A stretch of 64,000 nucleotides of DNA from a virus (IMGVR_UViG_3300028364_000013), one strand, 5' to 3'. Numbered from the stretch's first letter, positions 5,330 to 50,422 are shown. Translations and numbers: made by a program. The notes: generated by a model not told the origin, from the sequence alone.

Positions 5330-5482
5330 ATGGGAAGACCAAAATTAAAAGAAAAAGAAAAGAAAGCAAGACTTGGGATTACAATTTCTAAAGAATTAAA
5401 TAAACTTCTTGGTATAGAGACACCTAATAAGTCTGGGTTTATAGAGAACTTAATTCAAAAATATTTCGATGAAAAAAAATAA
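5330..5482 (+). CDS. 50-aa ribbon-helix-helix-like protein (not in ORF track)
   Basis: MGRPKLKEKEKKARLGITISKELNKLLGIETPNKSGFIENLIQKYFDEKK; overlaps endonuclease start. Confidence 0.7.
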   Translation: MGRPKLKEKEKKARLGITISKELNKLLGIETPNKSGFIENLIQKYFDEKK

Positions 5483-11913: not shown

Positions 11914-11945
11914 TTGTAACTTTTTAAAATACTATCGTTATATAG

Positions 11946-14489: not shown

Positions 14490-14639
14490 AATTAAAATAA
14501 CGCACCCTAAAAATGTATAAAAATAATAGCTATTAGGTGCTGTTTATAAGGCTATTACTTGTTAATTAAATTTATTCCTATCAGATAGCTAACGCATATT
14601 TACACGCTACTATTATTATACTAAACGTTATGTGCAAGG

Positions 14640-14930
14640 CTAACTTACTGCTTCCAAAAGACGATTTTTAATCCATTCAACATTTGGAACACCATTGCCA
14701 TTTAATACTTCAAGAACTTCGTTTATGGCTTCTTTCATTTTTGGTGCAGAAATAATAAGTTTAGCGTCTTCCATTCTTATTTCATCTGTATATCCATTGT
14801 GGTCGCCATAATCTTCTTGCATTACTTCAAGTCGTGGATAATGTCCATTTTTTTCTGCATTTGGTAAATCTGCTTCTATAAAAAACATTGATTCACTTAC
14901 AACTCTTACTCTCCAATTTTCTGTATTCAT
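14640..14930 (-). CDS. cassette hypothetical protein
   Basis: bounded by complementary R sites. Confidence 0.7.
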   Translation of the reverse strand: MNTENWRVRVVSESMFFIEADLPNAEKNGHYPRLEVMQEDYGDHNGYTDEIRMEDAKLIISAPKMKEAINEVLEVLNGNGVPNVEWIKNRLLEAVS

Positions 14931-15113
14931 TTCGTTTTTAAATTAAATTTAGTGCTGATAAACCGCCCAGCACATAACAGCGTGCATAATAAATTGGCAA
15001 TTCAGTGGTTAAATGAACCTTAGTTTTTCTAATCGAGTTCTGTGGCAGTAGGAAGTTTTCGTTTTCAAAATCGCCAACTTCTCATACACGCAAAACGTTA
15101 GCAAACATTTGGG

Positions 15114-15362
15114 CTACTGCTTAATTTCATCTTTCAGTTGCTCAAATCTTTCTGTTGTTACTATTATTTTTCTTGGTGTATTTTCAATTGCTCTCTCAAG
15201 TGATTGGAATAGTTCTTTTTTGCTTTTACATAAATGCTCTATTGCTTCATAAGGCGTTAATCCTCTCGCCATAGATTCAAAGATGCTTCTAAACTCTGCA
15301 TCAAATTGAAACTCTTCAAAGAACTCTTCCGTAAACTGTGATTTTAATTCAAATTGGTTCAT
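15114..15362 (-). CDS. cassette hypothetical protein, paralog of C-terminus of 1489-2037
   Basis: FDAEFRSIFESMARGLTPYEAIEHLCKSKKE. Confidence 0.75.
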   Translation of the reverse strand: MNQFELKSQFTEEFFEEFQFDAEFRSIFESMARGLTPYEAIEHLCKSKKELFQSLERAIENTPRKIIVTTERFEQLKDEIKQ

Positions 15363-15623
15363 AATAAAAACGATTTGCTAACACAACCTATACACCATAA
15401 AGCAATATAGTATTGTGCTAAGATTAAACATTGTGCTATGCTTTACGGTGCATAGCCAAACCGTTAGCAGCAATACTACTTTAGTTTTTCCAAAGAAGCT
15501 TTCTTTAGTGCCTATTTTAAAATCAACTCTCTCTTCTTCTGTCATTTCTCTTTCTTTATCACACATCAAACATCTCATTTTTGAAAATTCAGTCGGCCAC
15601 CTAAAGTTTATAATTTTCGTTCC

Positions 15624-18311: not shown

Positions 18312-19463
18312 TTGAGAGAAGTGATAACTTACTGCACAGAACTTATTCCAACAAACCCAGATGACATGAGCTTAATCATGAGCATCATGGAGGAATTTCG
18401 CTCTGTCGTTAATGAAGCAAGTCAAATTCAGTTCTCTAATCTTAAGGATTTAAGCGCACTCAAGGCATTGCATAACACTTTTTATCACCCAACAAGAGAA
18501 TCTCACCCTAATTTCCCTTCTCAAATGGTCATTCGTGCCGAGATGGAGTGCCTTGCATCATATAAAGCAATCAAATCCAACAAGCACAAAATATCGAGGC
18601 CATTCGAGAAACATAATCTCTCGATGAGACTTGACAAGAGACTTTATTCTCACGTCAAGGGCGAGCCAACGAAGATAAAGATAACAACCAAAGAAAAGAA
18701 GAAAGAATTCTCAATTGTCCTTTATCCGAAGCTTGAGGAATTAATGAGCAAGCATCAATTTGTTGACCCACTTATATTTGTTCGTGATGGCAAACTAATG
18801 ATTGCGCTGACTTTTGACAATGCAATTGAGCCTGTCAAGTCCACTCTTTGTCTTGGGGTTGACCTTGGCATCCGAAGGGTTGCTGCGCTTTCTGATGGCA
18901 GACTCATCATCGACAAAAAGTTTAACAAAGAAAAGAGAGAACTTCGATATAAGAAGAGGTGTCTCCAGTCCAAGGGAACCAAGAGCTCAAGAAAGCACTT
19001 AAAAAAGCTAAGGAGAAAAGAAAGAGACAAGAACAAGAATCAAACACATCTTGTTGCCAATGAAATCCTCAAGACAAGTGCAAATGTGATTGCGCTGGAG
19101 AACCTAAAGGGAATAAAGGCAAAGAAATATAAAACACAAAATAAAAATGGAGTGAGTCAAGTTCCGTTCTTCGAATTAAGAAGAGTTTTGACTTATAAGG
19201 CCGAGAACATGGGAAAACATGTTTGTTTGGTTTCGCCAGCATATACCAGTCAAATCGACTCTGTTTCAGGAATCCGAGAGGGTGAACGAAGAGGAGTTAG
19301 ATTTTATGCAAAGTCAGGCTTGGTATATGATGCAGACATTAATGCTGCAGTTAACATCGCTCGAAGGAGCAAACACCCCATCTCGCAAGGAAGCTTGCTT
19401 GACGGGCAGGGCGTTGTCAATCGCCCAATCGCATGTCAGCCCAAGACGACCATCACGGTCTGA
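18312..19463 (+). CDS. tnpB: TnpB RNA-guided endonuclease (IS200/IS605/IS607 superfamily), no TnpA
   Basis: RuvC-I LGVDLGIRR, RuvC-II IALENL, RuvC-III DADINAAVNI, SPAYTSQ; C4 zinc finger absent. Confidence 0.9.
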   Translation: MREVITYCTELIPTNPDDMSLIMSIMEEFRSVVNEASQIQFSNLKDLSALKALHNTFYHPTRESHPNFPSQMVIRAEMECLASYKAIKSNKHKISRPFEKHNLSMRLDKRLYSHVKGEPTKIKITTKEKKKEFSIVLYPKLEELMSKHQFVDPLIFVRDGKLMIALTFDNAIEPVKSTLCLGVDLGIRRVAALSDGRLIIDKKFNKEKRELRYKKRCLQSKGTKSSRKHLKKLRRKERDKNKNQTHLVANEILKTSANVIALENLKGIKAKKYKTQNKNGVSQVPFFELRRVLTYKAENMGKHVCLVSPAYTSQIDSVSGIREGERRGVRFYAKSGLVYDADINAAVNIARRSKHPISQGSLLDGQGVVNRPIACQPKTTITV

Positions 19464-31828: not shown

Positions 31829-34126
31829 ATGATTTATTTAGACTATATTTACACACAGATAATTGACAACATGAACGACAGCAAGAAAGAGAAAGTAACA
31901 GGAATTATAGATAAGATAATTTTTCACAATCAAGATAATGGATACTATATACTAAGCGTATCTCTTCCAAATGATGAAGATGTAACCATTACAGCAAGCC
32001 ACCCAAGTCTTCACGAAGGTGTAACTTATGAATTTGAAGGTGGATGGATTGAGCATGCTCGTTTTGGAAAACAGATGAACTCTAAAGCTGTATATGAAGT
32101 TCCACCAAACACTAAAGAAGGCCTTAAGGCATATCTTGCGTCAAGTTTCTTTCCAGGAATTGGTCCAGTTATCGCAAATCGAATAATCAAGCATTTTAAA
32201 AATGATGATGTCATAAGAGTGTTTAACGAAGACATCGAACTGCTTCTTGATGTTCCTGGAGTTTCTAAAAAGAAGTTAGAAGCAATCAAGGAGTCATGGG
32301 AGGCAAACAACGAAATAAATGAAATAATGATGTTCCTTCAGCAATTTGGTATTACCACTGTATATGCTGCAAAGATTTATAAGCATTATGGAAAAGGTTG
32401 TGTTGCTCAAATCAAAGAGAGACCTTATGAGATTGCAAGAGATATTAAAGGAATAGGATTCAAGTATGCAGATAAAATTGCTCTTGAAGTTGGTGTTGAG
32501 CCTGATAGCGAAGAGAGAATAAAAGCCTGCATTATGCACATCCTTGAATCTGGTAGTCTTGATGGTCATTGCTATTTATTAAGAGAGCAAATTACTATTA
32601 AGTCAACCGAATTACTTGGAGTTGACATTAGACCCCAAGTTGAGAACATCTTAAAGTATATGATTCAAGAAAAAGATATTTTAACAATATATCTTGATGA
32701 TGAAGAAAACGAAACAAGGTACTATTCTAAAAAGCTTTATTATAATGAAAAAAAATGTGCCAACAGAATTGGAGAACTTTTATTAAATCACAAAAACATT
32801 GAAATATCTGAAACAATAATTGAAACTGGCAAATTAAGTAATGAACAAAAAGAATCAGTTTTTGGAGTTATATCTAAAGGGGTTTCAATATTAACTGGAG
32901 GCCCTGGTTGTGGAAAAACATATACAACAAAAACTATTGTTGAAGTATTGTTGAAATTAGGTAAAAACTTAGCGGTTTGTGCTCCTACAGGAAAAGCTGC
33001 ATTACGTAGCACATCAGTTATTGGATTTGAAGCTTCAACTATTCATAGACTTCTTGGTTGGGACCCAGAGAGTTTTGGATTTATGCATAATGAAAATAAT
33101 CCATTACCATTTGATTTTATAATAACAGAAGAAGCTTCGATGATTGATATAAATTTAATGTCATCATTTTTAAAAGCAATACCTGACGAATGTCAGATAT
33201 TATTTGTTGGAGACCACAATCAATTACCCCCTGTAAATGCTGGAGCACCATTTAGAGATATGATAGAAAGCGAAATTGTTCCAACATTTAAACTTACTGA
33301 AATTTTTAGACAAGCTAAAAACTCTGAAATCATAACTTCAGCACATGATATAAATAATGGAATAATGCCTGTAATCAAAAATCCTTTAATAAATCCAGAG
33401 ATTTGGAAAGATGGAACAGATTGTATGTTTATTGACTCTGGAGTTGGTGAATATGGAAGGCCGAATAGTGAATATCCAGAGCGGTCTTCTCTTAGATATG
33501 GTATGGATGTGGTGGATATGATTAAAAACATTTACACTAAAACTATAAAAAAGTACTATAACACAGATGATATTCAAATATTAATCCCAATGAAAGTATC
33601 TGATTTAGGAACTATTAAAATAAACTCAATTATTCAAGAAACAATAAATCCACTAAAAAGAGGAGATGAAGAAATAAAAATAGGTGATAAAAAATTTAGA
33701 AAAAACGATAAAGTAATCCATATACAGAATAATTATGACCTTGAGGTTTTTAATGGAGAAATAGGAAAGATAATATTAATTGATTCCATTTCTGGTTTTT
33801 GTGAAGTAGAATTTGATGGGGGTAAAATAATTAAATATAAAAAATCAAATATGATTGAACTTGAACTTTCGTTTGCCGTTTCAATACATAAATACCAAGG
33901 CAGTGAATGTTCTTGCATAATATTACCAATAATGCCAACATACAACAGAATGCTTGAGAGAACTTTAATCTATACTGGAATCACTCGTGCAAAAAAATTG
34001 TGTATTTTTATTGGCAAAAGAGAATCGTTGCAAAAAGCTGTTAATACAGTTAATTCATCTAAAAGACAAACTTCTCTTAAAGAACTTTTAATTGAGTCTG
34101 ATATGGTAAATTCACTTATCCCTTAA
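31829..34126 (+). CDS. recD2: RecD2-type SF1B helicase
   Basis: N-terminal OB, GIGP and GIGFKYAD HhH motifs, TGGPGCGKT, EEASM, GDHNQLPPV, SIHKYQGSE, YTGITRAK. Confidence 0.92.
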   Translation: MIYLDYIYTQIIDNMNDSKKEKVTGIIDKIIFHNQDNGYYILSVSLPNDEDVTITASHPSLHEGVTYEFEGGWIEHARFGKQMNSKAVYEVPPNTKEGLKAYLASSFFPGIGPVIANRIIKHFKNDDVIRVFNEDIELLLDVPGVSKKKLEAIKESWEANNEINEIMMFLQQFGITTVYAAKIYKHYGKGCVAQIKERPYEIARDIKGIGFKYADKIALEVGVEPDSEERIKACIMHILESGSLDGHCYLLREQITIKSTELLGVDIRPQVENILKYMIQEKDILTIYLDDEENETRYYSKKLYYNEKKCANRIGELLLNHKNIEISETIIETGKLSNEQKESVFGVISKGVSILTGGPGCGKTYTTKTIVEVLLKLGKNLAVCAPTGKAALRSTSVIGFEASTIHRLLGWDPESFGFMHNENNPLPFDFIITEEASMIDINLMSSFLKAIPDECQILFVGDHNQLPPVNAGAPFRDMIESEIVPTFKLTEIFRQAKNSEIITSAHDINNGIMPVIKNPLINPEIWKDGTDCMFIDSGVGEYGRPNSEYPERSSLRYGMDVVDMIKNIYTKTIKKYYNTDDIQILIPMKVSDLGTIKINSIIQETINPLKRGDEEIKIGDKKFRKNDKVIHIQNNYDLEVFNGEIGKIILIDSISGFCEVEFDGGKIIKYKKSNMIELELSFAVSIHKYQGSECSCIILPIMPTYNRMLERTLIYTGITRAKKLCIFIGKRESLQKAVNTVNSSKRQTSLKELLIESDMVNSLIP

Positions 34127-35092
34127 TGTTCTATATTTATAAAACTCTTGTGATTCTAATTGTTTAAAATTTAATAAATTTAAAACTATTTCAGGAGAAT
34201 TGTTATACAAATCCACAAAATAAATCTCTTTATCAATTTTCCATAAAATTATTAATCCAATATTATTTTCTTTACAATATTTTTCTTTTATTTTATCTCT
34301 TTTCTGTGTCTCTTTTAATTTTTCGATTCCACCGAAATATTCAACAGATTCAAAATGTTGATTTCCATGATATTCTATACACACATTTTGTTTTGGCAAA
34401 TAAAAATCAAATTTTAAATGCAAAATATATTTACAATCATTAAATTTTTTCTCACCTTCCAACTTTACCATGTTTTCTTTTAAAATTTTATAAATCATTT
34501 TTTCTCCATTTGAAAACTTGCACTTAGGACACCCATCGCCTCTTTTATGTGCGTTAGGGGTTTGCTTAAAATCACCATGATTTGAACATATGATAGATAC
34601 TTTTTTCATACAATTATCATAATTAACTTTTGAGTAATCATATTTATCTCCATGAACTAATTTAGAATCAGATATAAACTCTTTCAATGTCAATCTTGAT
34701 TTATTTGCATTTAATTTAATTCCACACTTTATACAACCATATTTTAAATGATTTTTAGGAGTTTGTTTAAACTCTCCATGTTCTGGACAAATAATTTTTA
34801 CTGCTTTTAAAGAATTGTTGTATTGAACTAGAGAGTAATCGTATTTATTTGTATGTATATTCCTCACCTTTTTAATAAATTCTTCAGTCGTTATATTTTT
34901 GTTAACACATTTTGGACACCCCTGTCCTCTAAAATGTTTTTCTGCAGATTGTTCAAAAATACCATGTTCTGAACAAATAATTTCAACCTTCAATTTACTC
35001 CCTAAATATTCAACAAGTGAATAATCATATTTGTATTCATGAATTTTATTTGACCTTTCTGTAAACTCTTCTGTTGTTAGTTTTACTGACAT
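34112..35092 (-). CDS. putative homing endonuclease: YDYS/IC..HG repeats + Vsr/DUF559-like nuclease
   Basis: 3 repeats KYDYS.V.Y.....V.IIC..HG.F.Q; KFDFYLP...IEYHGNQH. Confidence 0.8.
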   Translation of the reverse strand: MSVKLTTEEFTERSNKIHEYKYDYSLVEYLGSKLKVEIICSEHGIFEQSAEKHFRGQGCPKCVNKNITTEEFIKKVRNIHTNKYDYSLVQYNNSLKAVKIICPEHGEFKQTPKNHLKYGCIKCGIKLNANKSRLTLKEFISDSKLVHGDKYDYSKVNYDNCMKKVSIICSNHGDFKQTPNAHKRGDGCPKCKFSNGEKMIYKILKENMVKLEGEKKFNDCKYILHLKFDFYLPKQNVCIEYHGNQHFESVEYFGGIEKLKETQKRDKIKEKYCKENNIGLIILWKIDKEIYFVDLYNNSPEIVLNLLNFKQLESQEFYKYRTLRDK

Positions 35093-40482: not shown

Positions 40483-41230
40483 CTAATTTTTAATTATTTT
40501 ATATTGTCTCTTATGTATTTCTACTTTATCAAGCACAAATTTAGTACTAATTGCTTGAACAAACAAATTAAAAGCATCATCTTTATCAATAACAATAATT
40601 TCAACTGGTTTAACATTACCATCAACCCATTGAATCTTTTTCCATTGCTCATTAGAATAAGTCCCATCAGTTTTGGGCATCTCACCTTTACACACTTTCA
40701 AAGTGAAGTCACTCTTAATTTCAATAAATCTATCTCCAAAGTCAAAATCTGGAATGTATTGTCCATGAGGTGTTTTAAATTTTTTTCTATTTGGTTTTGG
40801 CAAATCAACTCCGTCATTAATTAACCTCTGAAGATATGCTACCTCATAAGAACCAAGAACCTTTCCAGCTTTTGTATTAAAAGTTCTTGACTTACCTATA
40901 ACTGGAAGTCTATCTTCTTTGTCCCAAGCTTCAATTCCACTTTTAGAAATCTGTTCTTTCGACTTTTTAGAATGTTTCCTTCCAGTAAATCCTTTAGTTG
41001 GACCATATACTTCTCTGTTTTTTTTGCAAAGGTCACTCTTGCTAATTTTTGGAACTTTCCATTTATCAAGCCAATATGTTATTGAAAAATCACTTCTATC
41101 AAACAGATTTCCTATATATTTTGCCCCCCTATGCTCTTTTGAATAAAGTTGTATGATTTCTTTTTTTTCTTCTGTAGAAGGCTCTCCCTTTCTTTTATAG
41201 TAAACTCTCTTTCTAACTTGCAGCCACTTT
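40483..41230 (-). pseudogene. 5'-truncated NUMOD3 / PD-(D/E)XK endonuclease
   Basis: Frame stays open well upstream of TTG 40803 (GRKHSKKSKEQIS; SYEVAYL; YIPDF..IEIKS) with no ATG. Confidence 0.6.
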
Positions 41231-41295
41231 GGGCAACCACAAGAAAGATAGATGGAGTTATTTATGAAGGGAACATTAATAAAGGAGAAGATTAA
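41200..41295 (+). pseudogene. C-terminal remnant of an HNH-like endonuclease
   Basis: IVNSLSNLQPLWATTRKIDGVIYEGNINKGED*. Confidence 0.5.
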
Positions 41296-41669
41296 TCTAA
41301 AATTATAATAGAATCTATTTGTTTTCTGGTCATATTGACTCTTGAAACTTGAATTAAAACCTCATCTCCAAGCCTATAGCTATCTCCATTATTAAAATCG
41401 TTTATACAATAGTTTTCTTCATCAACAAATAGATTATTGGATTTTAGCCAATCTTCTGAAACCATTGTATCACATCCATTTTCTATTATTTCTATAAAAA
41501 CACCAAACGAATTTACACTGGAAATAATTCCTTTAAATTTCTCTCCAATTTTACTCTTCAGAAACTCGCACTGCTTGTACTTAATGGATTCTCTCTGTGC
41601 TTTAGCAGCTTTTTGTTCTTGTTCACTTAGATGTTCGCACATTTGTGATAATTGTGATTTATTATACAT
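41292..41669 (-). CDS. rnr: RNase R C-terminal piece (end of RNB + S1)
   Basis: CEHLSEQEQKAAKAQRESIKYKQCEF..IGEKF.G.ISSV..FGVFIE..YRLGDEV.IQV. Confidence 0.85.
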   Translation of the reverse strand: MYNKSQLSQMCEHLSEQEQKAAKAQRESIKYKQCEFLKSKIGEKFKGIISSVNSFGVFIEIIENGCDTMVSEDWLKSNNLFVDEENYCINDFNNGDSYRLGDEVLIQVSRVNMTRKQIDSIIILD

Positions 41670-42472
41670 TATATAGGTAAATTTACTTTATTTAACATTT
41701 TATTTGAGACATGGGTATATATCTCAGTGGTTTTAGATGATGAGTGACCCGCTATCTTCTGAATAATTCTAAGGTCTGTGCCGCTTTCCAATAGATTTGT
41801 GAAAGAAGAATGGCGTAGTGTGTGAATTGAAGAGTTGTTGTCAATATACTTCTTATATATTTTCTGACAACTACCAACTGAATACTGGTCATAATTTTGA
41901 CCATTAAACAAATAAGTTTTTGGCCTATATTCTTTCCAATAATACCTCAACAACTGCAGCACATAGTTCGATAATGGTACAACCCTATCTTTTCTTCCCT
42001 TAGCATTTTTAATATAAATCAACATTCTGATGGAGTCAATATCTTCTATTTTTAAATTAACAACTTCTGATACACGAAGACCAACTGAATACGTTAAAGT
42101 CAATATTGCTTTATGTTTTAAATTTTCAATCTTTGATAACTTATCTTTAATCAATTCTCCATCTATAACTTTTGGTAACTTCTTTTCTTTCTTTGGCCTC
42201 TTAAAAGATACTTTATCATACTTTTTATTGAGCCCAAACTTATAAAGAAATCTAATTGCGTTAATAACTTGATTTTGTTTTGATATAGAAGTGAAATTAT
42301 AATTATTAAGATATAACTGAAAATCTTTTGAATTGAGGTGAATTATTCTTTTATCACCGCACCAAGTAATAAATTGCTTGATGTAATGGGTATAAATGTC
42401 CTTGGTTCTTTCAGAGTAGTTTAAATATATAAACTTTTGTTCACAAATCTTTACAATTTTTTGATTTAACAT
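41669..42472 (-). CDS. tyrosine recombinase, integron-like integrase
   Basis: YS.RT...Y, NQVINAIRFLY, RPKKEKKLP, GLRVSE, KGRKDR, HTLRHS, GHSS..TT.IYTHV. Confidence 0.9.
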   Translation of the reverse strand: MLNQKIVKICEQKFIYLNYSERTKDIYTHYIKQFITWCGDKRIIHLNSKDFQLYLNNYNFTSISKQNQVINAIRFLYKFGLNKKYDKVSFKRPKKEKKLPKVIDGELIKDKLSKIENLKHKAILTLTYSVGLRVSEVVNLKIEDIDSIRMLIYIKNAKGRKDRVVPLSNYVLQLLRYYWKEYRPKTYLFNGQNYDQYSVGSCQKIYKKYIDNNSSIHTLRHSSFTNLLESGTDLRIIQKIAGHSSSKTTEIYTHVSNKMLNKVNLPI

Positions 42473-42510
42473 CTTATATCAATTTAATAATCAATGATTT
42501 ATAAAAAGGT

Positions 42511-42534
42511 GTTTATATATAGTCGTTATGTGGC
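42511..42534 (+). other. attI-like site
   Basis: GTTTATATATAGTC-G/TTATGTGGC: R site without a partner hairpin, just upstream of the divergent integrase. Confidence 0.6.
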
Positions 42535-42693
42535 ATTATACCACCACATCTTTTTTGTGATTTTGTGTTTTTTAACTAATTCCTTCGTATGTTCTTTAAT
42601 ATCTTCGTAATCTTTTGAAACTTCATTCAATTTTTCACAAAAAGATACGTAACAATCGTATTCATCATCAATTCTACTTATACTACTTCCCAT
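42526..42693 (-). CDS. cassette 1 protein, 55 aa (not in ORF track)
   Basis: MGSSISRIDDEYDCY...WWYNAT*; stop lies within the R site. Confidence 0.6.
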   Translation of the reverse strand: MGSSISRIDDEYDCYVSFCEKLNEVSKDYEDIKEHTKELVKKHKITKKMWWYNAT

Positions 42694-42701
42694 AATTTAA
42701 C

Positions 42702-42828
42702 GCCACATAACAACGTATATAAAACATTGCTTTAGTGGTCTTTTATTTAGTTTATTAATAATTCAAAATTTGTTGTTTATCTGTTAAGTTTCGGTTGGCA
42801 ACGTTTCATATACAAAACGTTGTGGTGC
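42702..42828 (+). repeat. attC-like 1
   Basis: GCCACATAAC; GTATATAAAACATTGC / GCAACGTTTCATATAC; GTTGTGGTGC. Confidence 0.85.
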
Positions 42829-42830
42829 AT

Positions 42831-43139
42831 TTAGAAAGAAAGTGCTTCACCTGCAACAACACCAGGGTCGCCATATTTACCTTCATCTTCTTCATCAAAG
42901 TTTTGTATAATTTGAAGAGCCTTTTTATACTTCATAAGGCGTTCAGTTAATGTCTGTTTTGCAAGTTCAATCCATTCACCATTTGGCGAGTGCTTGCAAC
43001 ATAAAATTCCGTTAATCACTTTTTCTTGATAATACATAGTTAAAAAACGCACCACAACAATGTATAACAGCAATAGCGGGTTGTAGTGCTTAATTTTAAC
43101 ACCATTGCTTCTAATTAATATTCTGTTTAATTCAATCAT
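42831..43139 (-). CDS. cassette 2 protein
   Basis: ORF; start either in attC2 or at internal MYYQ. Confidence 0.65.
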   Translation of the reverse strand: MIELNRILIRSNGVKIKHYNPLLLLYIVVVRFLTMYYQEKVINGILCCKHSPNGEWIELAKQTLTERLMKYKKALQIIQNFDEEDEGKYGDPGVVAGEALSF

Positions 43140-43186
43140 TTGTGCTTTCTAATCCGCTACTGCGGTTATACTCAGCGTTATAAGTC
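43049..43186 (+). repeat. attC-like 2
   Basis: GCACCACAAC; GTATAACAGCAATAGCGG / CCGCTACTGCGGTTATAC; GTTATAAGTC. Confidence 0.88.
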
Positions 43187-43387
43187 ATTTAGAACTTCAA
43201 TTCTATGTGGTTCATAATCAATAGGAGTTATATAATACAAACAAGGTATGTTTTTACTCAAACCTCTCATTCCAATCATTACGTCAGAATCATTTTTATA
43301 ATCTACTTTGTCAGATAAAAAACGACTTATAACATCAGCTATATGTAACACCTTTCCATCTTTATCAAATATTTCTAATTTATCCAT
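43178..43387 (-). CDS. cassette 3 protein, starts inside attC3
   Basis: MDKLEIFDKDGKVLHIADV|ISRF. Confidence 0.7.
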   Translation of the reverse strand: MDKLEIFDKDGKVLHIADVISRFLSDKVDYKNDSDVMIGMRGLSKNIPCLYYITPIDYEPHRIEVLNDL

Positions 43388-43459
43388 TGTTTCAGTATTT
43401 TAAGTTAGTATAGTAATCTATCAAGGTCGGCACTACACATAGCCCAAGCGGTTAGGTTT
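43324..43459 (+). repeat. attC-like 3
   Basis: GACTTATAAC; GCTATATGTAAC / CTACACATAGC; GTTAGGTTT. Confidence 0.8.
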
Positions 43460-44057
43460 AATATTCACTAAGTTTAATGCTACCTTCAATCTCATTTCCC
43501 CAAGCATCCCATCCTTGTCTAATATTTCTGGAGAACAATTCTAATTTATTTCCTTTAGATACTTTTTCAATAAGTTCATAAAAGAAGTCTGGTTTTTTTG
43601 AATGGCAAGGGTAGCCGTTTACATATTGTCTTTTTTCTTCAAACCAAGTTCCGTTTATTTTTTCATTTACCAATTCATTAACCTTGCCTTTGGTTGCAAA
43701 AATTAAGTATTCAGTAGACACTTTAAAAGTTCCACCCATTCCGCTACCTATTGGTTTTTTACACCATACAAGGGTTGTAGAGTATTTAAAACCCCAAGCC
43801 TTTACAACTTCTTCCGCTTTCATTAAATACTTATTTGTAACCCACAAATACAAATGACAATTATCAGCAGTCAAGTTTTTAATAGGCAGGTTTACTATGT
43901 CTTCAAATTTCATTGTGTTATAAGGCAAGTCTGCAGACTTATCGCTTTTTGGATTAAACACTTGTACCCCATTTTCTTTTTTGTAACCACCGCTTAATGG
44001 TCTCCCTGCTTTTTGCTCCCAAGCTGGGTCTGCATATATTATATTGTATTTATTCAT
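43458..44057 (-). CDS. MT-A70 family methyltransferase (cassette 4)
   Basis: IIYADPAW, YNTM, LYLWVTN, WGFKY, HSKKP, LELFSR..R.GW..WGNE. Confidence 0.88.
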   Translation of the reverse strand: MNKYNIIYADPAWEQKAGRPLSGGYKKENGVQVFNPKSDKSADLPYNTMKFEDIVNLPIKNLTADNCHLYLWVTNKYLMKAEEVVKAWGFKYSTTLVWCKKPIGSGMGGTFKVSTEYLIFATKGKVNELVNEKINGTWFEEKRQYVNGYPCHSKKPDFFYELIEKVSKGNKLELFSRNIRQGWDAWGNEIEGSIKLSEY

Positions 44058-44085
44058 ATTTATTCTTTAAAATCCGTTCATACTA

Positions 44086-44143
44086 AAACCTAACAATGTG
44101 TAAAACGGCATTAAAACGACCGTTTACACTAGGCGTTGTAAGT
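44086..44143 (+). repeat. attC-like 4 (short)
   Basis: AAACCTAAC; GTGTAAAACGG / CCGTTTACAC (one unpaired base); GTTGTAAGT. Confidence 0.85.
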
Positions 44144-44156
44144 AATTGGTTTTTAC

Positions 44157-44381
44157 CTACTGCGTATCTGCATAAGCACATTCATTACATTTTCTTTCCA
44201 CATATACAGCAGTGTTTTCGCAACTATCACAAACCAACTCCGTACAACACCGTGTATAAATAATAGCTTGCTTATTTCTGTCTTTTAAGATTACGTAAGC
44301 TTCATCGCTTATTTTGTTATCTTGGTGCAACCTATCAAGTGTAAATCCTGTTTGGATAAGTTGGTTATTTGTTTCGTTCAT
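44157..44381 (-). CDS. cassette 5 protein, starts inside attC5
   Basis: ORF crosses R'' at 44241-44248. Confidence 0.65.
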   Translation of the reverse strand: MNETNNQLIQTGFTLDRLHQDNKISDEAYVILKDRNKQAIIYTRCCTELVCDSCENTAVYVERKCNECAYADTQ

Positions 44382-44440
44382 TTTTATAAAATTTAGTTGT
44401 TATTAATCGCTACTATTCATACACAAATCAGTTGTAGTGA
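44241..44440 (+). repeat. attC-like 5 (long)
   Basis: CGTACAAC; GTGTATAAATAATAGC / GCTACTATTCATACAC; GTTGTAGTGA. Confidence 0.82.
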
Positions 44441-44443
44441 ATG

Positions 44444-44635
44444 CTACAATCCTACCTTTGATTTAAGTTCAGATATTGACATCCAGCTTTTAATTGATTT
44501 TGGTTGAACCCAATCGCTTTCCATGTCTGCTTTGAACATTCCATCTTTGTAATAGGCAAATTCAAGTACTCCACTAATATGTTCAACCAACACCCTTGTC
44601 ATATTTTCGGGTAATTCTAAATCTGTATTTTTCAT
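44444..44635 (-). CDS. cassette 6 protein
   Basis: self-contained ORF. Confidence 0.65.
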   Translation of the reverse strand: MKNTDLELPENMTRVLVEHISGVLEFAYYKDGMFKADMESDWVQPKSIKSWMSISELKSKVGL

Positions 44636-44667
44636 TTCAATTATACATTTAAGTTAATAATCCGCAC

Positions 44668-44738
44668 TCACTACAACACTTTGTATAGTGCATAGCTCGT
44701 GCCTCACTACGACACCATACAAGATGCCGTTGTAGGTA
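44668..44738 (+). repeat. attC-like 6
   Basis: TCACTACAAC; TGTATAGTG / CACCATACA; GTTGTAGGTA. Confidence 0.82.
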
Positions 44739-44747
44739 ATAAATTTA

Positions 44748-44930
44748 CTACTCTTGTGGTTCAAGAATGTCATAAGCATCTCTTATACATCCTTTTAATG
44801 TTGTGGCAACTGTTTGCATCCTAAAAGCACCGTTGTAATCTTCGGCTTTTATCTTATCATCAATTAAGCCTTGTAAATGTTGCCACTTGGTTTGCCATTC
44901 TTCAATCTGTTGTTTCAATTTATCTTCCAT
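44748..44930 (-). CDS. cassette 7 protein
   Basis: self-contained ORF. Confidence 0.65.
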   Translation of the reverse strand: MEDKLKQQIEEWQTKWQHLQGLIDDKIKAEDYNGAFRMQTVATTLKGCIRDAYDILEPQE

Positions 44931-44969
44931 TATATTTTTAAGTTTAGTGTTTCAATTCTGCAGGATTAC

Positions 44970-45030
44970 TACCTACAACAAAGGCTATAAAGCCATACAA
45001 GTACAGGCTCATAGCCTAGACATTATATGC
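44970..45030 (+). repeat. attC-like 7 (R' degenerate, ATT)
   Basis: TACCTACAAC; GGCTATAAAGCC / GGCTCATAGCC; ATTATATGC. Confidence 0.78.
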
Positions 45031-45038
45031 AATAAAAA

Positions 45039-45314
45039 TTACTTACGTCTTGGGTCTTCATCACACCATAGTTTATAACAATTAACTTTTCGCTTTATTA
45101 ACCGTGCTTTGTCTTGGATTTCTTCAAGGTTGGTAGCTGTTAATATAGCATCTAATGACACACTTCCACCACTACTGTCATCTAAATATCTTCCAAGCCA
45201 AACACTACCTTCGTCCGCTAATTCGTGCATTTTTGCATAATCAGGGAAACATTCTTTTACTTCTTTAATTAATTTTTGTGAGTACATAATCGTAATTTTA
45301 AAAGCATATAACAA
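45039..45314 (-). CDS. cassette 8 protein (probable start MYSQK)
   Basis: ORF inside cassette. Confidence 0.7.
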   Translation of the reverse strand: MLYAFKITIMYSQKLIKEVKECFPDYAKMHELADEGSVWLGRYLDDSSGGSVSLDAILTATNLEEIQDKARLIKRKVNCYKLWCDEDPRRK

Positions 45315-45437
45315 CGTGTATATTTTATTGCTACATACCGCCTATCTAAAGGCTTGTTAATATTTATTCAGTTCTGTTCTTATTTAAAGTTTATTGATAC
45401 CTATACGCAACAAAGCATACACAAACCGTTACCAAAC
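45304..45437 (+). repeat. attC-like 8
   Basis: GCATATAAC; GTGTATATTTTATTGC / GCAACAAAGCATACAC; GTTACCAAAC. Confidence 0.82.
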
Positions 45438-45438
45438 A

Positions 45439-45729
45439 TTAAATAACTTGGTACATCATTCCTGCAACTTGTGGCCCGTGTGTGTCATACGCTTTATCAT
45501 AAGCATCATTACTATCTTCTGCCTCTATTTCAAACGTCCATCCGTCTTTCCCTTCTGATTCAAACCAGAATAAATAACGTTTGGTAACACTATCTATAGG
45601 TAATGTCTGCCCTAGCTTTAGTGCTTGTAAGCGAAATTCAAATTCGTTTAAGAACTCTTGGTCTGTTGGTGTTCCTCCGATACCCTCCATTCCTTTTACT
45701 ATGTCAATTACTTTTTCTGATATATTCAT
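45439..45729 (-). CDS. cassette 9 protein, starts inside attC9
   Basis: ...LPIDSV|TKRYL. Confidence 0.7.
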   Translation of the reverse strand: MNISEKVIDIVKGMEGIGGTPTDQEFLNEFEFRLQALKLGQTLPIDSVTKRYLFWFESEGKDGWTFEIEAEDSNDAYDKAYDTHGPQVAGMMYQVI

Positions 45730-45788
45730 GATTAATTTTTAGTTATTTAAGTCGGGCAAAAAATACCCATAGATTTAACGTTAGCATT
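45579..45788 (+). repeat. attC-like 9 (long)
   Basis: GTTTGGTAAC; ATCTATAGGTA / TACCCATAGAT; GTTAGCATT. Confidence 0.8.
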
Positions 45789-46036
45789 CATAGTATTTGC
45801 CTTTCATCTATTGGTTTTTGGCATTCAATACAGTAAGGCGTACCATTTTCATCATTATCTCTACCTTTAGCCTGTGAGCATCGGCAAAATAACGAAATGC
45901 TAACATCAGGTATGGAGCAGTTTTTTACTCGCTCCTGGTCACATTCATTCCACACCTTCAACAGTGCTTGTTGTACGCTTGTACTATTGGGATAAGCTGT
46001 TTCAGCCTGTATCTCTTTTATTCTTTCAGTTGTCAT
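45788..46036 (-). CDS. cassette 10 protein, starts inside attC10
   Basis: ...CSIPDV|SISLFC; C-terminal CIEC. Confidence 0.7.
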   Translation of the reverse strand: MTTERIKEIQAETAYPNSTSVQQALLKVWNECDQERVKNCSIPDVSISLFCRCSQAKGRDNDENGTPYCIECQKPIDERQIL

Positions 46037-46098
46037 ACAATAAAGTTTAGTGTTTCAAATCCGTAAAAAATCCGCTCCATACCCCTAGCGTTATATGC
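45896..46098 (+). repeat. attC-like 10 (long)
   Basis: AATGCTAAC; GGTATGGAGCAGTTTTTTAC / GTAAAAAATCCGCTCCATACC; GTTATATGC. Confidence 0.88.
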
Positions 46099-46161
46099 AA
46101 TGCTACGTTATCACTTCGTATTAAGTTTCATCATAACATTCCCTTTGTTTTTCCACCGAAC

Positions 46162-46725
46162 TTATAATTCTAAATCCATATTAAATGGTTTAAAATTATT
46201 ATCTTCAATCATTTTCCTAACTCTTGGATGAAATTTATAAAATATTGAATTTGGTAAATCAATATCCCAATCCATCACGTCTATTAATTTGTTAATAATT
46301 CTACCTTGGAATATTTCATCTACATTTTCTATAAATAATTCATCAAAAGGAAAATGGACATTTCCAAATGTTGAATACATTTCAACCCAATCTAATATTT
46401 CTTTTTCTAATCTACTGTAATCATATCTAACTAAATCTTTTACTAATAGTTCGTTTTCACTATGTGCTATTATCTGACCACCATAGTCTAATAATTCTTT
46501 TCTATAAAGTTTCTTATGATTATCAGATATTTCTTTATACATTTTCTCAGGCATCTCACTACCATTTTCTATGTTTTTATTAACAAATGTTAAAAACTCT
46601 TTATCATCCCATAAATCATCTGAACTTGGTTCATAATTCATATCCTTTAAATTGCCATCTTGGTCAATATATGCTTCATTCAAATATTCACGTATAGTCG
46701 TTGCTATAAATTTTCTTAATTCCAT
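46162..46725 (-). CDS. cassette 11 protein
   Basis: MELRKFIATTIREYLNE; TATTTAT motif upstream. Confidence 0.75.
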   Translation of the reverse strand: MELRKFIATTIREYLNEAYIDQDGNLKDMNYEPSSDDLWDDKEFLTFVNKNIENGSEMPEKMYKEISDNHKKLYRKELLDYGGQIIAHSENELLVKDLVRYDYSRLEKEILDWVEMYSTFGNVHFPFDELFIENVDEIFQGRIINKLIDVMDWDIDLPNSIFYKFHPRVRKMIEDNNFKPFNMDLEL

Positions 46726-46839
46726 AATAATAAATAGTTTAATCTATATATAAATAATCACTTTTTAATATTCCACCCACAAAAATAAAACAAAAAGGCT
46801 TCGTTCTTCGTATCAGCATTTGTGGTTAAAATCCGCACA

Positions 46840-46861
46840 GCATATAACAAGTGTTAGTTGC
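46840..46861 (+). repeat. collapsed attC-like 11 (arms missing)
   Basis: GCATATAAC-AAGT-GTTAGTTGC. Confidence 0.7.
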
Positions 46862-47111
46862 AATGCTGTGGGTTTTTGCAACCTTCGTAGTGTTCCATAT
46901 CGCTTCCGTAACCGTTATACCACAAAACATATTCGCAATTTCTAACTTTTACTATTTGTAAGTCTGCCTTCCATTTAGGGTTGCTTATGTACATTTCTCT
47001 GTTATCTTTTTCTTGCTCAATATTTTCTTTGGTTTCATCTCCACAAGAAGAAAGCACAGCAACTAACACAAAATATAGCGTATAACTTAATTTCGTTCTT
47101 AAATTTTTCAT
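46854..47111 (-). CDS. cassette 12 lipoprotein, starts inside attC12
   Basis: MKNLRTKLSYTLYFVLVAVLSSC lipobox. Confidence 0.7.
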   Translation of the reverse strand: MKNLRTKLSYTLYFVLVAVLSSCGDETKENIEQEKDNREMYISNPKWKADLQIVKVRNCEYVLWYNGYGSDMEHYEGCKNPQHCN

Positions 47112-47194
47112 CTGTTCTGTTTTTAAAGTTTATTAATTATTAAAAGTTTTGTGCTGTTTTTGTCGTTACACACCATATTCAACACGTTATCGGC
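47059..47194 (+). repeat. attC-like 12
   Basis: GCAACTAAC; AATATAGCGTATAAC / GTTACACACCATATT; GTTATCGGC. Confidence 0.78.
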
Positions 47195-47204
47195 AAATGC
47201 TACA

Positions 47205-47378
47205 TTACTTCTTCGTATCAATATTTACGTTAGAAGTTTTTATTTTTTGCCCACGCTCTTTGATTAACTTACGTATTTCAGTTTCACATAAGTTTTTACG
47301 ACTTCTACCATCTTCTTTAGCAATAGCATCAAGAATATCAGTTTCATCTCTATCTAAATGTATTTCTATTCTTACCAT
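47205..47378 (-). CDS. RHH/CopG-like protein, cassette 13 (not in ORF track)
   Basis: MVRIEIHLDRDETDILDAIAKEDGRSRKNLCETEIRKLIKE. Confidence 0.65.
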   Translation of the reverse strand: MVRIEIHLDRDETDILDAIAKEDGRSRKNLCETEIRKLIKERGQKIKTSNVNIDTKK

Positions 47379-47695
47379 TAATCAATCATTTTAATTGATG
47401 AGTATGCAATGTTCCAAACCTCTCCATTTTCTCTTTTACATTTAACTTTCTTTGGATTTAGTTTTAAAACTTCCCAAATTTCACCTTTAAATTTATCACT
47501 AGCAACGGAAACTATGTCTCCTACTTTCAAATCGGTTTTTGATTTTTCTTTCCGTTCCAATTTAATTTGATATTCTTGTTCACGAATAAGTCTATTTGCA
47601 TCAGCAATTACTTTGTTCAATTCATCTAATGATAATCCAGTCAAGTCTATTTTACTTTCAGTATTTATCGTTGCCAGTTCTTGTAGTAAATTCAT
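47378..47695 (-). CDS. cassette 13 protein with SH3/KOW-like C-terminus
   Basis: LKVGDIV......GEIWEV.KLNPKKVKC. Confidence 0.7.
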   Translation of the reverse strand: MNLLQELATINTESKIDLTGLSLDELNKVIADANRLIREQEYQIKLERKEKSKTDLKVGDIVSVASDKFKGEIWEVLKLNPKKVKCKRENGEVWNIAYSSIKMID

Positions 47696-47849
47696 CTTAT
47701 TTTGTTTTAGTGTTATAGTTAATCATACGACAAACTTACGATAAAGTTTCGTATAAACCAAATCTTTTTCAATTATTTTTCTTCCGACCCTAAAAAATAA
47801 AAACTTATTTAGTGCTTCGTATTGAAATTAAGATAGATAATCCGCATCA

Positions 47850-47919
47850 GCCGATAACATTTTGTATATTTCAGTTTGCGAAAAGCAAACCGATAACATA
47901 CAATTTGCCGTTACCCTTA
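47850..47919 (+). repeat. attC-like 13
   Basis: GCCGATAAC; TGTATATTTCAGTTTGC / GCAAACCGATAACATACA; GTTACCCTTA. Confidence 0.85.
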
Positions 47920-47922
47920 ATA

Positions 47923-48420
47923 CTAGACATCTGTTTTCATAAAAGACATCCAATGCGTATTTGAGCGTTTACCTGATTTGTGTCCAAATAATGGTTGATG
48001 GCCAATGGCATTTAATATTTGAGTAACTGTAATTTGGGTTTCGTTCCATTTGAATATTAAAGTCCCATAAGGCTCTAAAACTCGCATACATTCATTAAAT
48101 CCAGTTTTTATATCTAATTCCCAAGTAGGTAATAAAACACCATACTTTTTAGCCATCCAACTGTCTTTTCCTAACTTATTTAAGTGTGGTGGGTCAAATA
48201 CTACCATTTTGAAAGTATTGTCTTTAAATGGCATATCTCTAAAATCAACCTCAATATCAGGTTTAACCTCTATTGTTCTAATTCCAGTATTTACGCTACT
48301 ATCTTTTACTTCTACGGTTTCCGTTCTTATGTCAGCAAATAAAACATTAGGGTTTGTTTTGTCAAACCAGAACATTCTACTTCCGCAACAAGCATCTAAT
48401 ATTTTTTTATCTGTATTCAT
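47923..48420 (-). CDS. class I SAM-dependent methyltransferase (cassette 14)
   Basis: ILDACCGSRMFWFDK, DFRDMPF, VVFDPPH, ECMRVL..GTLIFKWNE. Confidence 0.85.
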   Translation of the reverse strand: MNTDKKILDACCGSRMFWFDKTNPNVLFADIRTETVEVKDSSVNTGIRTIEVKPDIEVDFRDMPFKDNTFKMVVFDPPHLNKLGKDSWMAKKYGVLLPTWELDIKTGFNECMRVLEPYGTLIFKWNETQITVTQILNAIGHQPLFGHKSGKRSNTHWMSFMKTDV

Positions 48421-48451
48421 TATTCAAATTTCGTTTTTAATCAACCCGTAC

Positions 48452-48524
48452 TAAGGGTAACAATTTGTATAATGCATAATTTGTAAAAACAAATTCCGAC
48501 ACCATACAATAGCCGTTAGCGGTA
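48452..48524 (+). repeat. attC-like 14
   Basis: TAAGGGTAAC; TGTATAATG / CACCATACA; GTTAGCGGTA. Confidence 0.82.
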
Positions 48525-48528
48525 ATGG

Positions 48529-48759
48529 TCAGACGTTGTATCTAACAGCAGATGCCATTGCTATCAACAATAGTATTCCTGTTATAATAGCACCATCTGT
48601 TCCGAACATTTGTCCTATACAAAACATTACACCACCTGCCAATATTGTTGATACAAACATATACCATCCAGTTCCACTTTTAGGCTTTAATAAACCACTA
48701 CCGCTAACAAAGGGTTTATTAAATGGCTCAGTTTCGTTTTTCAAATTATCTTTTTCCAT
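48529..48759 (-). CDS. cassette 15 membrane protein
   Basis: ...FNKPFV|SGSG; R'' TACCGCTAAC at 48699; partner arm not found. Confidence 0.65.
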   Translation of the reverse strand: MEKDNLKNETEPFNKPFVSGSGLLKPKSGTGWYMFVSTILAGGVMFCIGQMFGTDGAIITGILLLIAMASAVRYNV

Positions 48760-48859
48760 ATTTTAAAGTTTTATGATTCTAATTAATTTTTGTGCGTAAA
48801 GTAACATTAAGTTAATTATCATAAAATATGATGAAAGTATATCTAAAAAAATAAATAAG

Positions 48860-50422
48860 CTATTGTCCGCCATTCATATAATACCACAATAATCTATGAC
48901 TCAAAATATCGCTGTATCTTCTTATTGGTGATGTAAAGTGACTATAGTGCTTGAATCCGAGTCCATAGTGACCAATTATTTGAGTTGAATAAACTGCTTT
49001 CGACATTGAGCGAATAGCTAACGTTGAAATCATTGCTTCCTCACCACTTCCAGACGCTTTCTTCAACATCTCGTTGAGAGATGCTTTGGTAGCTTCCATG
49101 CTTCCTGAAGTATTAAAGTGATAACCGAACTGAGATACGAATAAACTTAACTCATGCAGTTTCTCTTCACTTGGAAGGTCGTGTGTTCTATATACGAATG
49201 GCTTGGTAAGTCCGTGTGCATAAGTTGCAACATACTTGTTAGCCAATAACATGTACTCTTCAATAAGTTGATGAGCATCTGCAGATTCATGAAAGAAAAC
49301 ATCTATTGGAACATTGTCCTCATCAAGAACAAAGTTTGGCTCTCTTCTGTTGAAGGTGACCGCTCCATCTTTAAATCTTTTCTTTCTAACTTTCTTTGCA
49401 ATGCCATTCAATATTTTCACACAATCGAATACTCCCATCCCTGGTGGAACGCTTTCTATTCTGTCGGCAGTTCCTTCTATAATCTCTTGCGCTTCTTCAT
49501 ACGTCAATCTACAATCAGAGTTGATTACAGTCTTCTTGAAATTGTGCTTAACAACTTCTCCATCTGGAGACATCTGAAAGATAACCGAGAATGTCAGTTT
49601 TTCTTCATTTGGTCGTAAGCTACAGATTCCATTAGAAAGCCTCTCTGGGAGCATTGGAATACATCTATCAACAAGATAAACTGAAGTCGCTCTTCTAAAT
49701 GCTTCCTTATCCAATTCACTTCCTGGTCTAACATAATGTGTTACATCAGCAATGTGAACTCCAATCTCGTAATTCCCATTATCCAATTTCTTGAATGATA
49801 TTGCATCATCAAAATCTTTTGCACTGTCTGGGTCAATGGTGATTGTCAAATCTCCACGCATATCTCTACGCTTAAGAATCTCCTTTTCAGAAATCTCAAC
49901 TGGAATGTCTTCAGCTTCTTTCATAACTGCATCAGAGAAATCATAATCAATATTATGCTTAAACATAATGCTGTTCATTTCAGTCTCGTGAGTTTCAGCT
50001 GCGCCAATCACTTTTGTGACAATACCTTTTGGGCTTTTGTCCTTCTTGTGCCATCGGTGCAATTTAACAACCACAACCTCTCCATCCTTAGCGCCATTTA
50101 GGTGCTCCATTGGAACATAGAAATCTACTGGCATCTTACCTCCAGAAGTTCTAACAAAAGCAAATCCCTTTTCTTCATTGATGTCAATTACACCAGAGAA
50201 TTCAGTTTTGCTTCTATCTTCAACTCTTTCTACTATACCTTGTTCTCCAGTACCTTTTCCGCTTTCGTCTTTAACAATTGACACTGTGACCTTATCTCCA
50301 TGAAGAGCTTGGCCTGTATTTTTTTTGTGAATGAACAAATCATCATTGCCTTCTAATATTAAGTAAGCATGACCGTTTCTTATAAACTCTATTGTTCCTT
50401 CAGTTTGTTTTAATTTTTTCAT
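48860..50422 (-). CDS. rnr: RNase R, N-terminal piece (CSD1/2 + RNB), lacks S1
   Basis: TIDPDSAKDFDDA, VHIADV, RATSVYL, HQLIEEYMLLAN, HFTSPIRRYSD. Confidence 0.92.
   Translation of the reverse strand: MKKLKQTEGTIEFIRNGHAYLILEGNDDLFIHKKNTGQALHGDKVTVSIVKDESGKGTGEQGIVERVEDRSKTEFSGVIDINEEKGFAFVRTSGGKMPVDFYVPMEHLNGAKDGEVVVVKLHRWHKKDKSPKGIVTKVIGAAETHETEMNSIMFKHNIDYDFSDAVMKEAEDIPVEISEKEILKRRDMRGDLTITIDPDSAKDFDDAISFKKLDNGNYEIGVHIADVTHYVRPGSELDKEAFRRATSVYLVDRCIPMLPERLSNGICSLRPNEEKLTFSVIFQMSPDGEVVKHNFKKTVINSDCRLTYEEAQEIIEGTADRIESVPPGMGVFDCVKILNGIAKKVRKKRFKDGAVTFNRREPNFVLDEDNVPIDVFFHESADAHQLIEEYMLLANKYVATYAHGLTKPFVYRTHDLPSEEKLHELSLFVSQFGYHFNTSGSMEATKASLNEMLKKASGSGEEAMISTLAIRSMSKAVYSTQIIGHYGLGFKHYSHFTSPIRRYSDILSHRLLWYYMNGGQ

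Follow-up and report, generated by a model that had tools for sequence, protein, structure and literature searches.

A putative integron-type gene-capture platform with a short, Xer-like recombinase in a large phage

Both the literature and software define integrons by an integrase carrying a specific insertion that is considered essential for reading the folded attC site, and the published classification of tyrosine recombinases terms this insertion essential for integron function (PMC8138268). Phages, including virulent ones, can carry classical integrons and integrase-less attC clusters (CALINs), and complete integrons are rare among them (Qi et al. 2023; PMC9892861). Complete integrons are also nearly absent from Bacteroidetes according to IntegronFinder 2.0 (PMC9024848). 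We analyzed a 64,000-nucleotide stretch (the window) of the viral contig IMGVR_UViG_3300028364_000013, in which a gene for a 267-aa tyrosine recombinase (the integrase), an attI-like site, and 15 small cassettes lie side by side. We consider it likely, with a probability of roughly 0.8, that together they form an integron-type gene-capture platform in a large phage. Our literature search, with partial coverage of journals, returned no account of an array operated by an integrase that lacks the insertion, and prior publication is possible.

The locus shares with classical integrons (class 1 and those of Vibrio; VchIntIA, 2a3v) an integrase divergent from attI, imperfect hairpins with ...AAC and GTT... 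boxes, a G/TT crossover in which the cassette keeps its own TT... start, and structure that is conserved while sequence varies. The polarity of the folding strand relative to attI and the shorter spacer on the attI-proximal arm are likewise shared. It differs in a recombinase with ~48 fewer residues at the place of the IntI insertion, in cassette genes that occupy the opposite strand and point toward the integrase, a third of them starting inside their own hairpin, in boxes that pair over 10 bp, in a 3-5-nt bulge in place of extrahelical bases, in the TATA core of the inner stem, and in its phage host. Among the properties by which integrons are recognized, the array has attI as the entry point at G/TT by the 5' end of the integrase gene, structure-conserved hairpins, and a swap of cognate boxes, but not promoterless cassettes read from a promoter at the integrase/attI end.

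In "inverted integrase" chromosomal integrons (Treponema denticola type), integrase and cassette genes point in the same direction and the integrase is turned relative to attI. Co-direction is shared, but in the phage it is the cassette genes that are reversed, whereas the integrase keeps its 5' end toward attI. Xer recombinases (XerA of Pyrococcus abyssi, 4a8e; XerC and XerD) have the same size and two-domain build and give the best sequence matches, whereas the phage enzyme falls below all curated Xer cut-offs and is tied to an array of hairpin sites, not to a single dif site. Phage integrons and CALINs identified with IntegronFinder/HattCI resemble the locus in carrying cassette arrays in phage genomes, with orphan DNA methyltransferases as recurrent cargo, but their integrases are classical IntI (PMC9892861), whereas here the integrase is the element's own and lacks the insertion. 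The site model described below found nothing in Polaribacter phage P12002L, a CALIN phage of the same study.

Cassette boxes, the attI-like site, and turnover among relatives

Fifteen cassettes, each made of one or two small genes and an imperfect hairpin, are delimited from the GTT at 42525 to ~48839 (table 1). A first-pass annotation, made from the sequence alone, had proposed 15 units with starts complementary to their own ends and had quoted seven box pairs, all of which are present (42525/42702, 42819/43049, 43177/43324, 44431/44668, 45428/45579, 47910/48452, and 48515/48699). Each unit opens with (G)TT and seven further nucleotides, and this start matches its own far ...AAC box at 10 of 10 positions in eight units, nine of 10 in six, and eight of 10 in one; the pair of unit 5 (44135/44239) is weaker. 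Over the seven variable bases, the mean match is 6.47/7 for cognate boxes, 3.0/7 for the box facing in the same site, and 2.5/7 for all noncognate pairings. In the 6.3-kb region, 18 GTT-led 9-mers have a reverse complement downstream, against an expectation of ~1.3 (shuffles yield 13.6 per 64 kb). This swap of cognate boxes is the signature of integron cassettes, because a crossover between G and TT leaves each cassette with its own TT... start.

The isolated GTT box at 42525, which had been placed beside a minus-strand tyrosine integrase in the first reading as well, is located 53 nt upstream of the start codon (42472) of the integrase gene. It belongs to an attI-like site of the form TATATA-N5-GTT, with the crossover after the G. 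The consensus, TATATATAATA followed by GTTA, is common to 67 distinct related loci, where it is found 32-57 nt upstream of the integrase start. Across 73 viral loci, the integrase and the hairpin sites are on opposite strands in 265 of 265 site matches, nearly all of which are upstream of the integrase. A classical divergent layout of integrase, attI, and array, as first described, is thus accurate for the geometry of integrase, attI, and sites, but not for the genes, all of which are antisense to the classical orientation, nor for the enzyme, which is not an IntI.

Comparison of related loci shows that cassettes are replaced at attI and reordered. Loci L041 and L042 share 99.98% identity over 10,851 nt, but their sequences are unrelated immediately past the attI GTTA. 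The same divergence after the GTTA is seen in L067/L068, L047/L048, L050/L051, L052/L053/L055, and L009/L012, for six groups in all. In L012, L023, and L024, cassettes that are 99.9-100% identical differ in their order and neighbors, as the comparison of cassette order and content suggested at the outset would reveal. Because backbones break after GTTA and identical cassettes are reordered, insertion at attI and reshuffling have occurred in the family. The proposal of a capture and shuffling platform consequently holds for the family, but for this phage the only second assembly has the same cassette order. We infer activity for the family; it may extend to this phage and its enzyme. Contigs from other lake samples, examined as Logan assembled contigs rather than reads, match single cassettes and end at the boxes at 42821, 44089, 45023, 46090, 48459, and 48523, which offers weak support for mobility. 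Joints reported for these contigs, with sides of 20-32 nt at 90% likeness, were given no weight, and stretches of the array lacking coverage in X3-X7 do not count as absences.

Hairpin sites and their folding strand

Sites in the array are 24 to 211 nt in length, close to the 22-210 bp first estimated. In these sites, an ...AAC box is followed by an inner stem that has a TATA core, a loop whose length varies widely, the complementary inner stem, three to five extra unpaired bases, and a GTT... box, with boxes that pair over 10 bp. The inner inverted repeat, described at first for every site, follows the ...AAC box in 14 of the 15 and is missing from the 24-nt site 11 (46839-46862). Searching 80 related viral loci for exact 10-mer pairs yielded 317 near arms and 337 far arms; one arm has AAC-A-N5-TATA, and the other a weaker ATA...C-GTT. 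Most sites in relatives are about 137 nt long, and smaller groups are about 100 and 60 nt.

A custom covariance model, of the kind proposed at first, was built from an alignment of 74 sites of the 137-nt class from related loci. On this alignment, unguided RNAalifold predicts a 16-pair helix with compensatory changes at all 16 pairs. The model has 15 full-length matches in the window, all on the plus strand and all in two clusters, and recovers 12 of 15 sites in the main array (E of 0.5 or below) as well as three in a second one; the remaining 105 kb of the genome have no match at E <= 1. In 56 model matches, mostly outside the building set, 93.9% of cells are paired, versus 51.9% in shuffles (none as high in 500) and 30-42% after a shift of partners by one to three columns, although pairing is somewhat favored because the alignment was fitted to the model. 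These patterns show that the sites form a covarying hairpin.

The second cluster, ~27 kb from the main array, surrounds two or three small minus-strand ORFs (14640-14930 and 15114-15362), and no recombinase was found near it (14502-15472). Its sites were all outside the training set of the model and one is the best match in the window, at 94.4 bits. The cluster has at least two sites within 3-4 kb and no adjacent integrase, as defines a CALIN, with sites judged by the model built here, not by the canonical one.

Mismatches in 171 well-paired sites are biased on the plus strand (279 A.C vs. 65 G.T), so the minus strand forms G.T pairs and is the strand selected to fold. The best-folding strand is thus the minus strand of the window, equivalent to the classical bottom strand. 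Zero to two unpaired bases separate box and stem on the attI-proximal arm, and three to six on the distal arm. Classical attC sites, such as attC aadA7, have an asymmetry of the same polarity relative to attI.

The minus strand is also the transcribed sense strand, and its G.T bias is equally compatible with folding of RNA. The hairpins could be terminators or processing sites of static small phage genes, adjoined by chance by an unrelated integrase. Consistent with such a role, hairpins are located between ORFs, the strand prone to fold is the one transcribed, and no known RNA family matches: Rfam, which contains no attC family, has no match in 41000-49500. But RNA hairpins do not account for the pairing of the first 10 nt with the unit's own far box over the adjacent box, nor for near-identical genomes that diverge exactly at the attI GTT or for identical units that are reordered. 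Static RNA hairpins are already contradicted by the comparative data, and we regard them as extremely improbable.

The recombinase and the proposed mobility of the array

The recombinase falls below every NCBIfam cut-off for XerA, XerC, XerD, and IntI. Scores against curated equivalog cut-offs are 169.5 versus 220 for XerA, 145.7 versus 329.6 for XerD, and 140.9 versus 335 for XerC. Models of integron integrases score 152.6 bits in two stretches versus a cut-off of 265 (TIGR02249) and 100 versus 435 (PRK15417). The best solved relative is XerA of Pyrococcus (4a8e), and XerA and XerD align end to end, through the regions of the active-site residues. When aligned to VchIntIA (2a3v), residues 173-209 of the recombinase (37 residues) occupy the place of IntI residues 175-259 (85 residues), a difference of ~48; the IntI-specific insertion, in the I2 helix region of the catalytic domain, is therefore absent. 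By the usual definition, the enzyme is not an IntI.

More than 100 proteins of 266-267 aa are ~80% identical to the recombinase, and relatives are encoded on 80 viral contigs. Among cultured phages, the closest integrases are those of Cellulophaga and Polaribacter phages, at 37% identity, and chromosomal relatives are from Bacteroidota almost throughout. Chromosomes of Bacteroidota contain the same site family, either upstream of an integrase and on the strand opposite to it, or downstream of it and on its own strand. Loci L110, L111, L118, L120, L122, L141, L144, L149, L166, and others have integrases that are 40-48% identical, with arrays of this family downstream and on the strand of the integrase, unlike the phage layout. 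In Logan contigs L084-L089, an 86% identical integrase is beside genes for a TonB-dependent receptor and an NMN transporter, neighbors that suggest a bacterial chromosome, and an IS1595 transposase is among the small ORFs upstream. The site model has no match at E <= 0.001 in L083 and L084, whose integrases are 84-86% identical.

By analogy with integrons, we suggest that the adjacent enzyme would excise cassettes as circles by recombination between sites. Excised cassettes would then be inserted at attI via a folded single strand, with replication resolving the junction. The asymmetric bulge of 3-5 nt may set polarity, replacing the extrahelical bases that are read by the IntI insertion.

Cassettes could alternatively be mobile but moved by a recombinase of the host, either a classical IntI or a chromosomal relative, with the adjacent enzyme serving phage integration or dimer resolution. 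Missing the IntI insertion, the adjacent recombinase would fit such a division of roles, as would the second array without its own integrase, the same site family in Bacteroidota chromosomes, and the existence of integrase-less phage arrays that IntI1 can recombine (PMC9892861). However, the attI motif and its 32-57-nt spacing from the integrase are kept in the 67 distinct loci, and site polarity relative to the integrase is invariant (265/265). Furthermore, classical IntI is almost absent from Bacteroidetes (PMC9024848), and no second recombinase of the same family was found in the contig. A host enzyme is very unlikely, in our view, to be what moves these cassettes.

Beyond the ambiguity of the strand bias, several observations weigh against an integron-type platform run by the adjacent enzyme in this phage. 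The recombinase lacks an insertion considered essential for integron recombination (PMC8138268), and the role of this enzyme rather than a host enzyme rests on constant adjacency. Canonical extrahelical bases are not evident in the array sites. The model misses sites 9, 10, and 11, site 11 lacks an inner stem, and half of the last site is degenerate, with GAT for GTT. Units generally begin with GTT, as first claimed, but this last site and unit 7, which ends in ATT at 45022, depart from it. Finally, the only other assembly of the phage (L082) has cassettes 1-7 in unchanged order.

Some of these features would suit a system that is genuine in the family yet survives in this phage as a frozen relic, with an array inherited or acquired once and turnover since ended. 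The unchanged order in L082 and the degenerate features (the ATT at 45022, the 24-nt site 11, and the decayed outer arm of the last site) are as expected of a relic. Likewise, no cassette protein of the window recurs in the 80 related viral loci, where proteins from these cassettes have almost no relatives and only short partial matches. Yet the integrase ORF is intact and close to its >100 relatives, cognate box pairs match at least 6/7 in 14 of 15, contigs from other samples have single cassettes that end at boxes, and the second array in the same genome implies dispersal of cassettes. We judge a relic to be unlikely and favor a gene-capture platform for this phage.

Cassette genes, genomic setting, and significance

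All 16 ORFs of the main array share the strand of the integrase and are directed toward it, as are 306 of 315 cassette genes of relatives. The ATG is inside the hairpin site in 97 of 306 cassettes in relatives and for six of 15 genes in the phage array. We also read the array in the orientation of the genes, with a site downstream of each ORF, and rejected this arrangement since six ORFs would cross cassette borders. Because genes are on the folding strand and read toward the integrase, a promoter on the attI side cannot serve the cassettes. Expression would come from phage read-through from the side of RNase R, a gene that flanks the array, or from a conserved leader within or next to each hairpin. 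Many cassette ATGs are preceded by an A/T-rich TAAACTTTAAA-like stretch and by a GCGGATT motif. In gene orientation, GCGGATT is at the start of the leader before cassette ORFs (e.g., 44653-44667, 46826-46838, 47835-47848, and 46060-46085). Sites of the 137-nt class have it within the loop, and in sites of ~60-70 nt and before the 24-nt site 11 it is just outside the hairpin.

Beyond the window (genome G000:C1, ~111,700-155,600), there are ~85 copies of a ~30-nt promoter-like motif, TTGTAACTTTTTAAAT-N4-(A/G)TCGTTATACA. Copies are each 20-40 nt upstream of a small ORF and nearly all on one strand, and one copy is in the window near 11936. The motif resembles a promoter specific to the phage that would drive a long block of small genes; it is absent from the main array.

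Cargo of the phage includes MT-A70 and phrog_954 DNA methyltransferases, a two-gene ribbon-helix-helix (RHH) cassette, and lipoprotein-like and small membrane proteins, and the rest are without a known family. Among 146 cassette ORFs sampled from relatives, eight encode DNA methyltransferases and one the Thoeris inhibitor Tad6, ADP-ribosyltransferase families are matched (ART-PolyVal, Arr-ms, and PARP), and most have no family. Because methyltransferases, a Thoeris inhibitor, and ADP-ribosyltransferases are among the cargo, the data suggest that the array is an exchangeable store of counter-defense and accessory genes.

The window is the minus strand of a single viral contig of 168,582 bp, with a CheckV completeness of 72%. 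The contig has genes for a terminase large subunit, a sigma factor, a DNA ligase, an exonuclease V-like helicase, a polymerase, and several HNH homing endonucleases; this gene content identifies it as a large phage. Its host is probably a member of Bacteroidota. Sequencing runs that contain the stretch are metagenomes of lake water and salt lakes, with no RNA run among those listed, and a megablast search with 10 kb found no match among deposited phage genomes. A transposase-like ORF (phrog_506; 18312-19463) and two HNH homing-endonuclease ORFs (5469-6443 and 34112-35092) are elsewhere in the window.

The 7.2-kb element is located between the RNB and S1 parts of the RNase R gene of the phage, a single uninterrupted gene of 661-665 aa in relatives L067 and L068. 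The break is within a linker (...GGQ and a stop, then MYNK...), with zero residues missing relative to L067/L068 and both ORFs intact. The ATG of the S1 ORF overlaps the stop codon of the integrase (TAATG), and this overlap predicts that translation of the S1 piece is coupled to that of the integrase. The array of L040 is just downstream of the coding region of an RNase R that is not split, and that of L067 lies immediately upstream of its intact gene.

Table 1. Features of the element, its flanks, and the second array. Positions refer to the window; cognate is the match over the seven variable bases, and model the score with the covariance model.
Feature	Position	Strand	ORF	Hairpin site	Cognate	Model (bits)	Remarks
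S1-domain ORF, C-terminal RNase R piece	41292..41669	-	125 aa				Pfam S1 E 3e-10; aligns to C-terminus of L067/L068 RNase R
Tyrosine recombinase	41669..42472	-	267 aa				Xer/IntI-like "simple" type without IntI insertion; Phage_integrase and SAM_4 domains
attI-like site	42473..42528	+					TTTATATATAGTC then GTTA; crossover at GTT of 42525-42527
Cassette 1	42526..42819	+	42526-42693 (-), 55 aa	42702-42828	7/7	60.5	
Cassette 2	42820..43177	+	42831-43028 (-), 65 aa	43049-43186	7/7	84.3	
Cassette 3	43178..43451	+	43178-43387 (-), 69 aa	43324-43460	7/7	35.4	ATG within own site
Cassette 4	43452..44135	+	43458-44057 (-), 199 aa	44085-44144		20.4	MT-A70 DNA methyltransferase; Pfam MT-A70 E 1.6e-28; phrog_359
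Cassette 5	44136..44431	+	44157-44381 (-), 74 aa	44239-44440 (202 nt)	5/7	24.3 (E 0.02)	Cys-rich; ATG within site
Cassette 6	44432..44729	+	44444-44635 (-), 63 aa	44668-44738	7/7	23.2	
Cassette 7	44730..45022	+	44748-44930 (-), 60 aa	44970-45031	7/7	27.7	Ends ATT, not GTT
Cassette 8	45023..45428	+	45039-45287 (-), 82 aa	45303-45437	6/7	59	
Cassette 9	45429..45780	+	45439-45729 (-), 96 aa	45579-45789 (211 nt)	7/7	missed	ATG within site; inner arms pair by eye
Cassette 10	45781..46090	+	45788-46036 (-), 82 aa	45895-46099 (205 nt)	6/7	missed	ATG within site; inner arms GGTATGGAGC/GCTCCATACC pair by eye
Cassette 11	46091..46853	+	46162-46725 (-), 187 aa	46839-46862 (24 nt)	6/7	missed	No family; minimal site, no inner repeat
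Cassette 12	46854..47186	+	46854-47111 (-), 85 aa	47058-47195	6/7	62.1	Lipoprotein-like leader; ATG within site
Cassette 13	47187..47910	+	47378-47695 (-), 105 aa; 47205-47378 (-), 57 aa	47849-47919		29.4	Overlapping ORFs; the 57-aa product is ribbon-helix-helix, Pfam RHH_1 E 1.5e-4
Cassette 14	47911..48515	+	47923-48420 (-), 165 aa	48452-48524	7/7	17.4 (E 0.44)	DNA methyltransferase; phrog_954 E 4e-76
Cassette 15	48516..48839	+	48529-48759 (-), 76 aa	48699-48839	7/7	22.2	Small membrane protein; ATG within last site; outer arm degenerate, GAT for expected GTT
RNB part of split RNase R	48860..50422	-	520 aa				Pfam RNB E 3e-110, also CSD2 and OB_RNB; ends in HRLLWYYMNGGQ and the stop
Second array, no integrase	14502..15472	+		14502-14636; 14969-15106; 15373-15472	6/7, 6/7	42.8; 94.4; 42.2	

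We lean slightly toward a broader view, in which short Xer-like integrases are a separate and very abundant lineage that runs integron-like platforms in Bacteroidota and their phages, capturing cassettes through folded single-stranded hairpins without the IntI insertion. Polarity would come from the 3-5-nt bulge, genes would be on the folding strand with a leader of their own in each cassette, and counter-defense genes would be traded from a pool shared with hosts. A complete platform with a shorter enzyme is present in a phage, its integrase has more than 100 close relatives, and related site arrays occur in Bacteroidota chromosomes. The reversed orientation of genes is relevant to how expression of cassettes is organized. 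If the enzyme works as proposed, the requirement for the insertion becomes directly testable, and a large class of elements would be escaping current integron surveys. Phages would, in that case, gain a known route for the fast exchange of small accessory and anti-defense genes.

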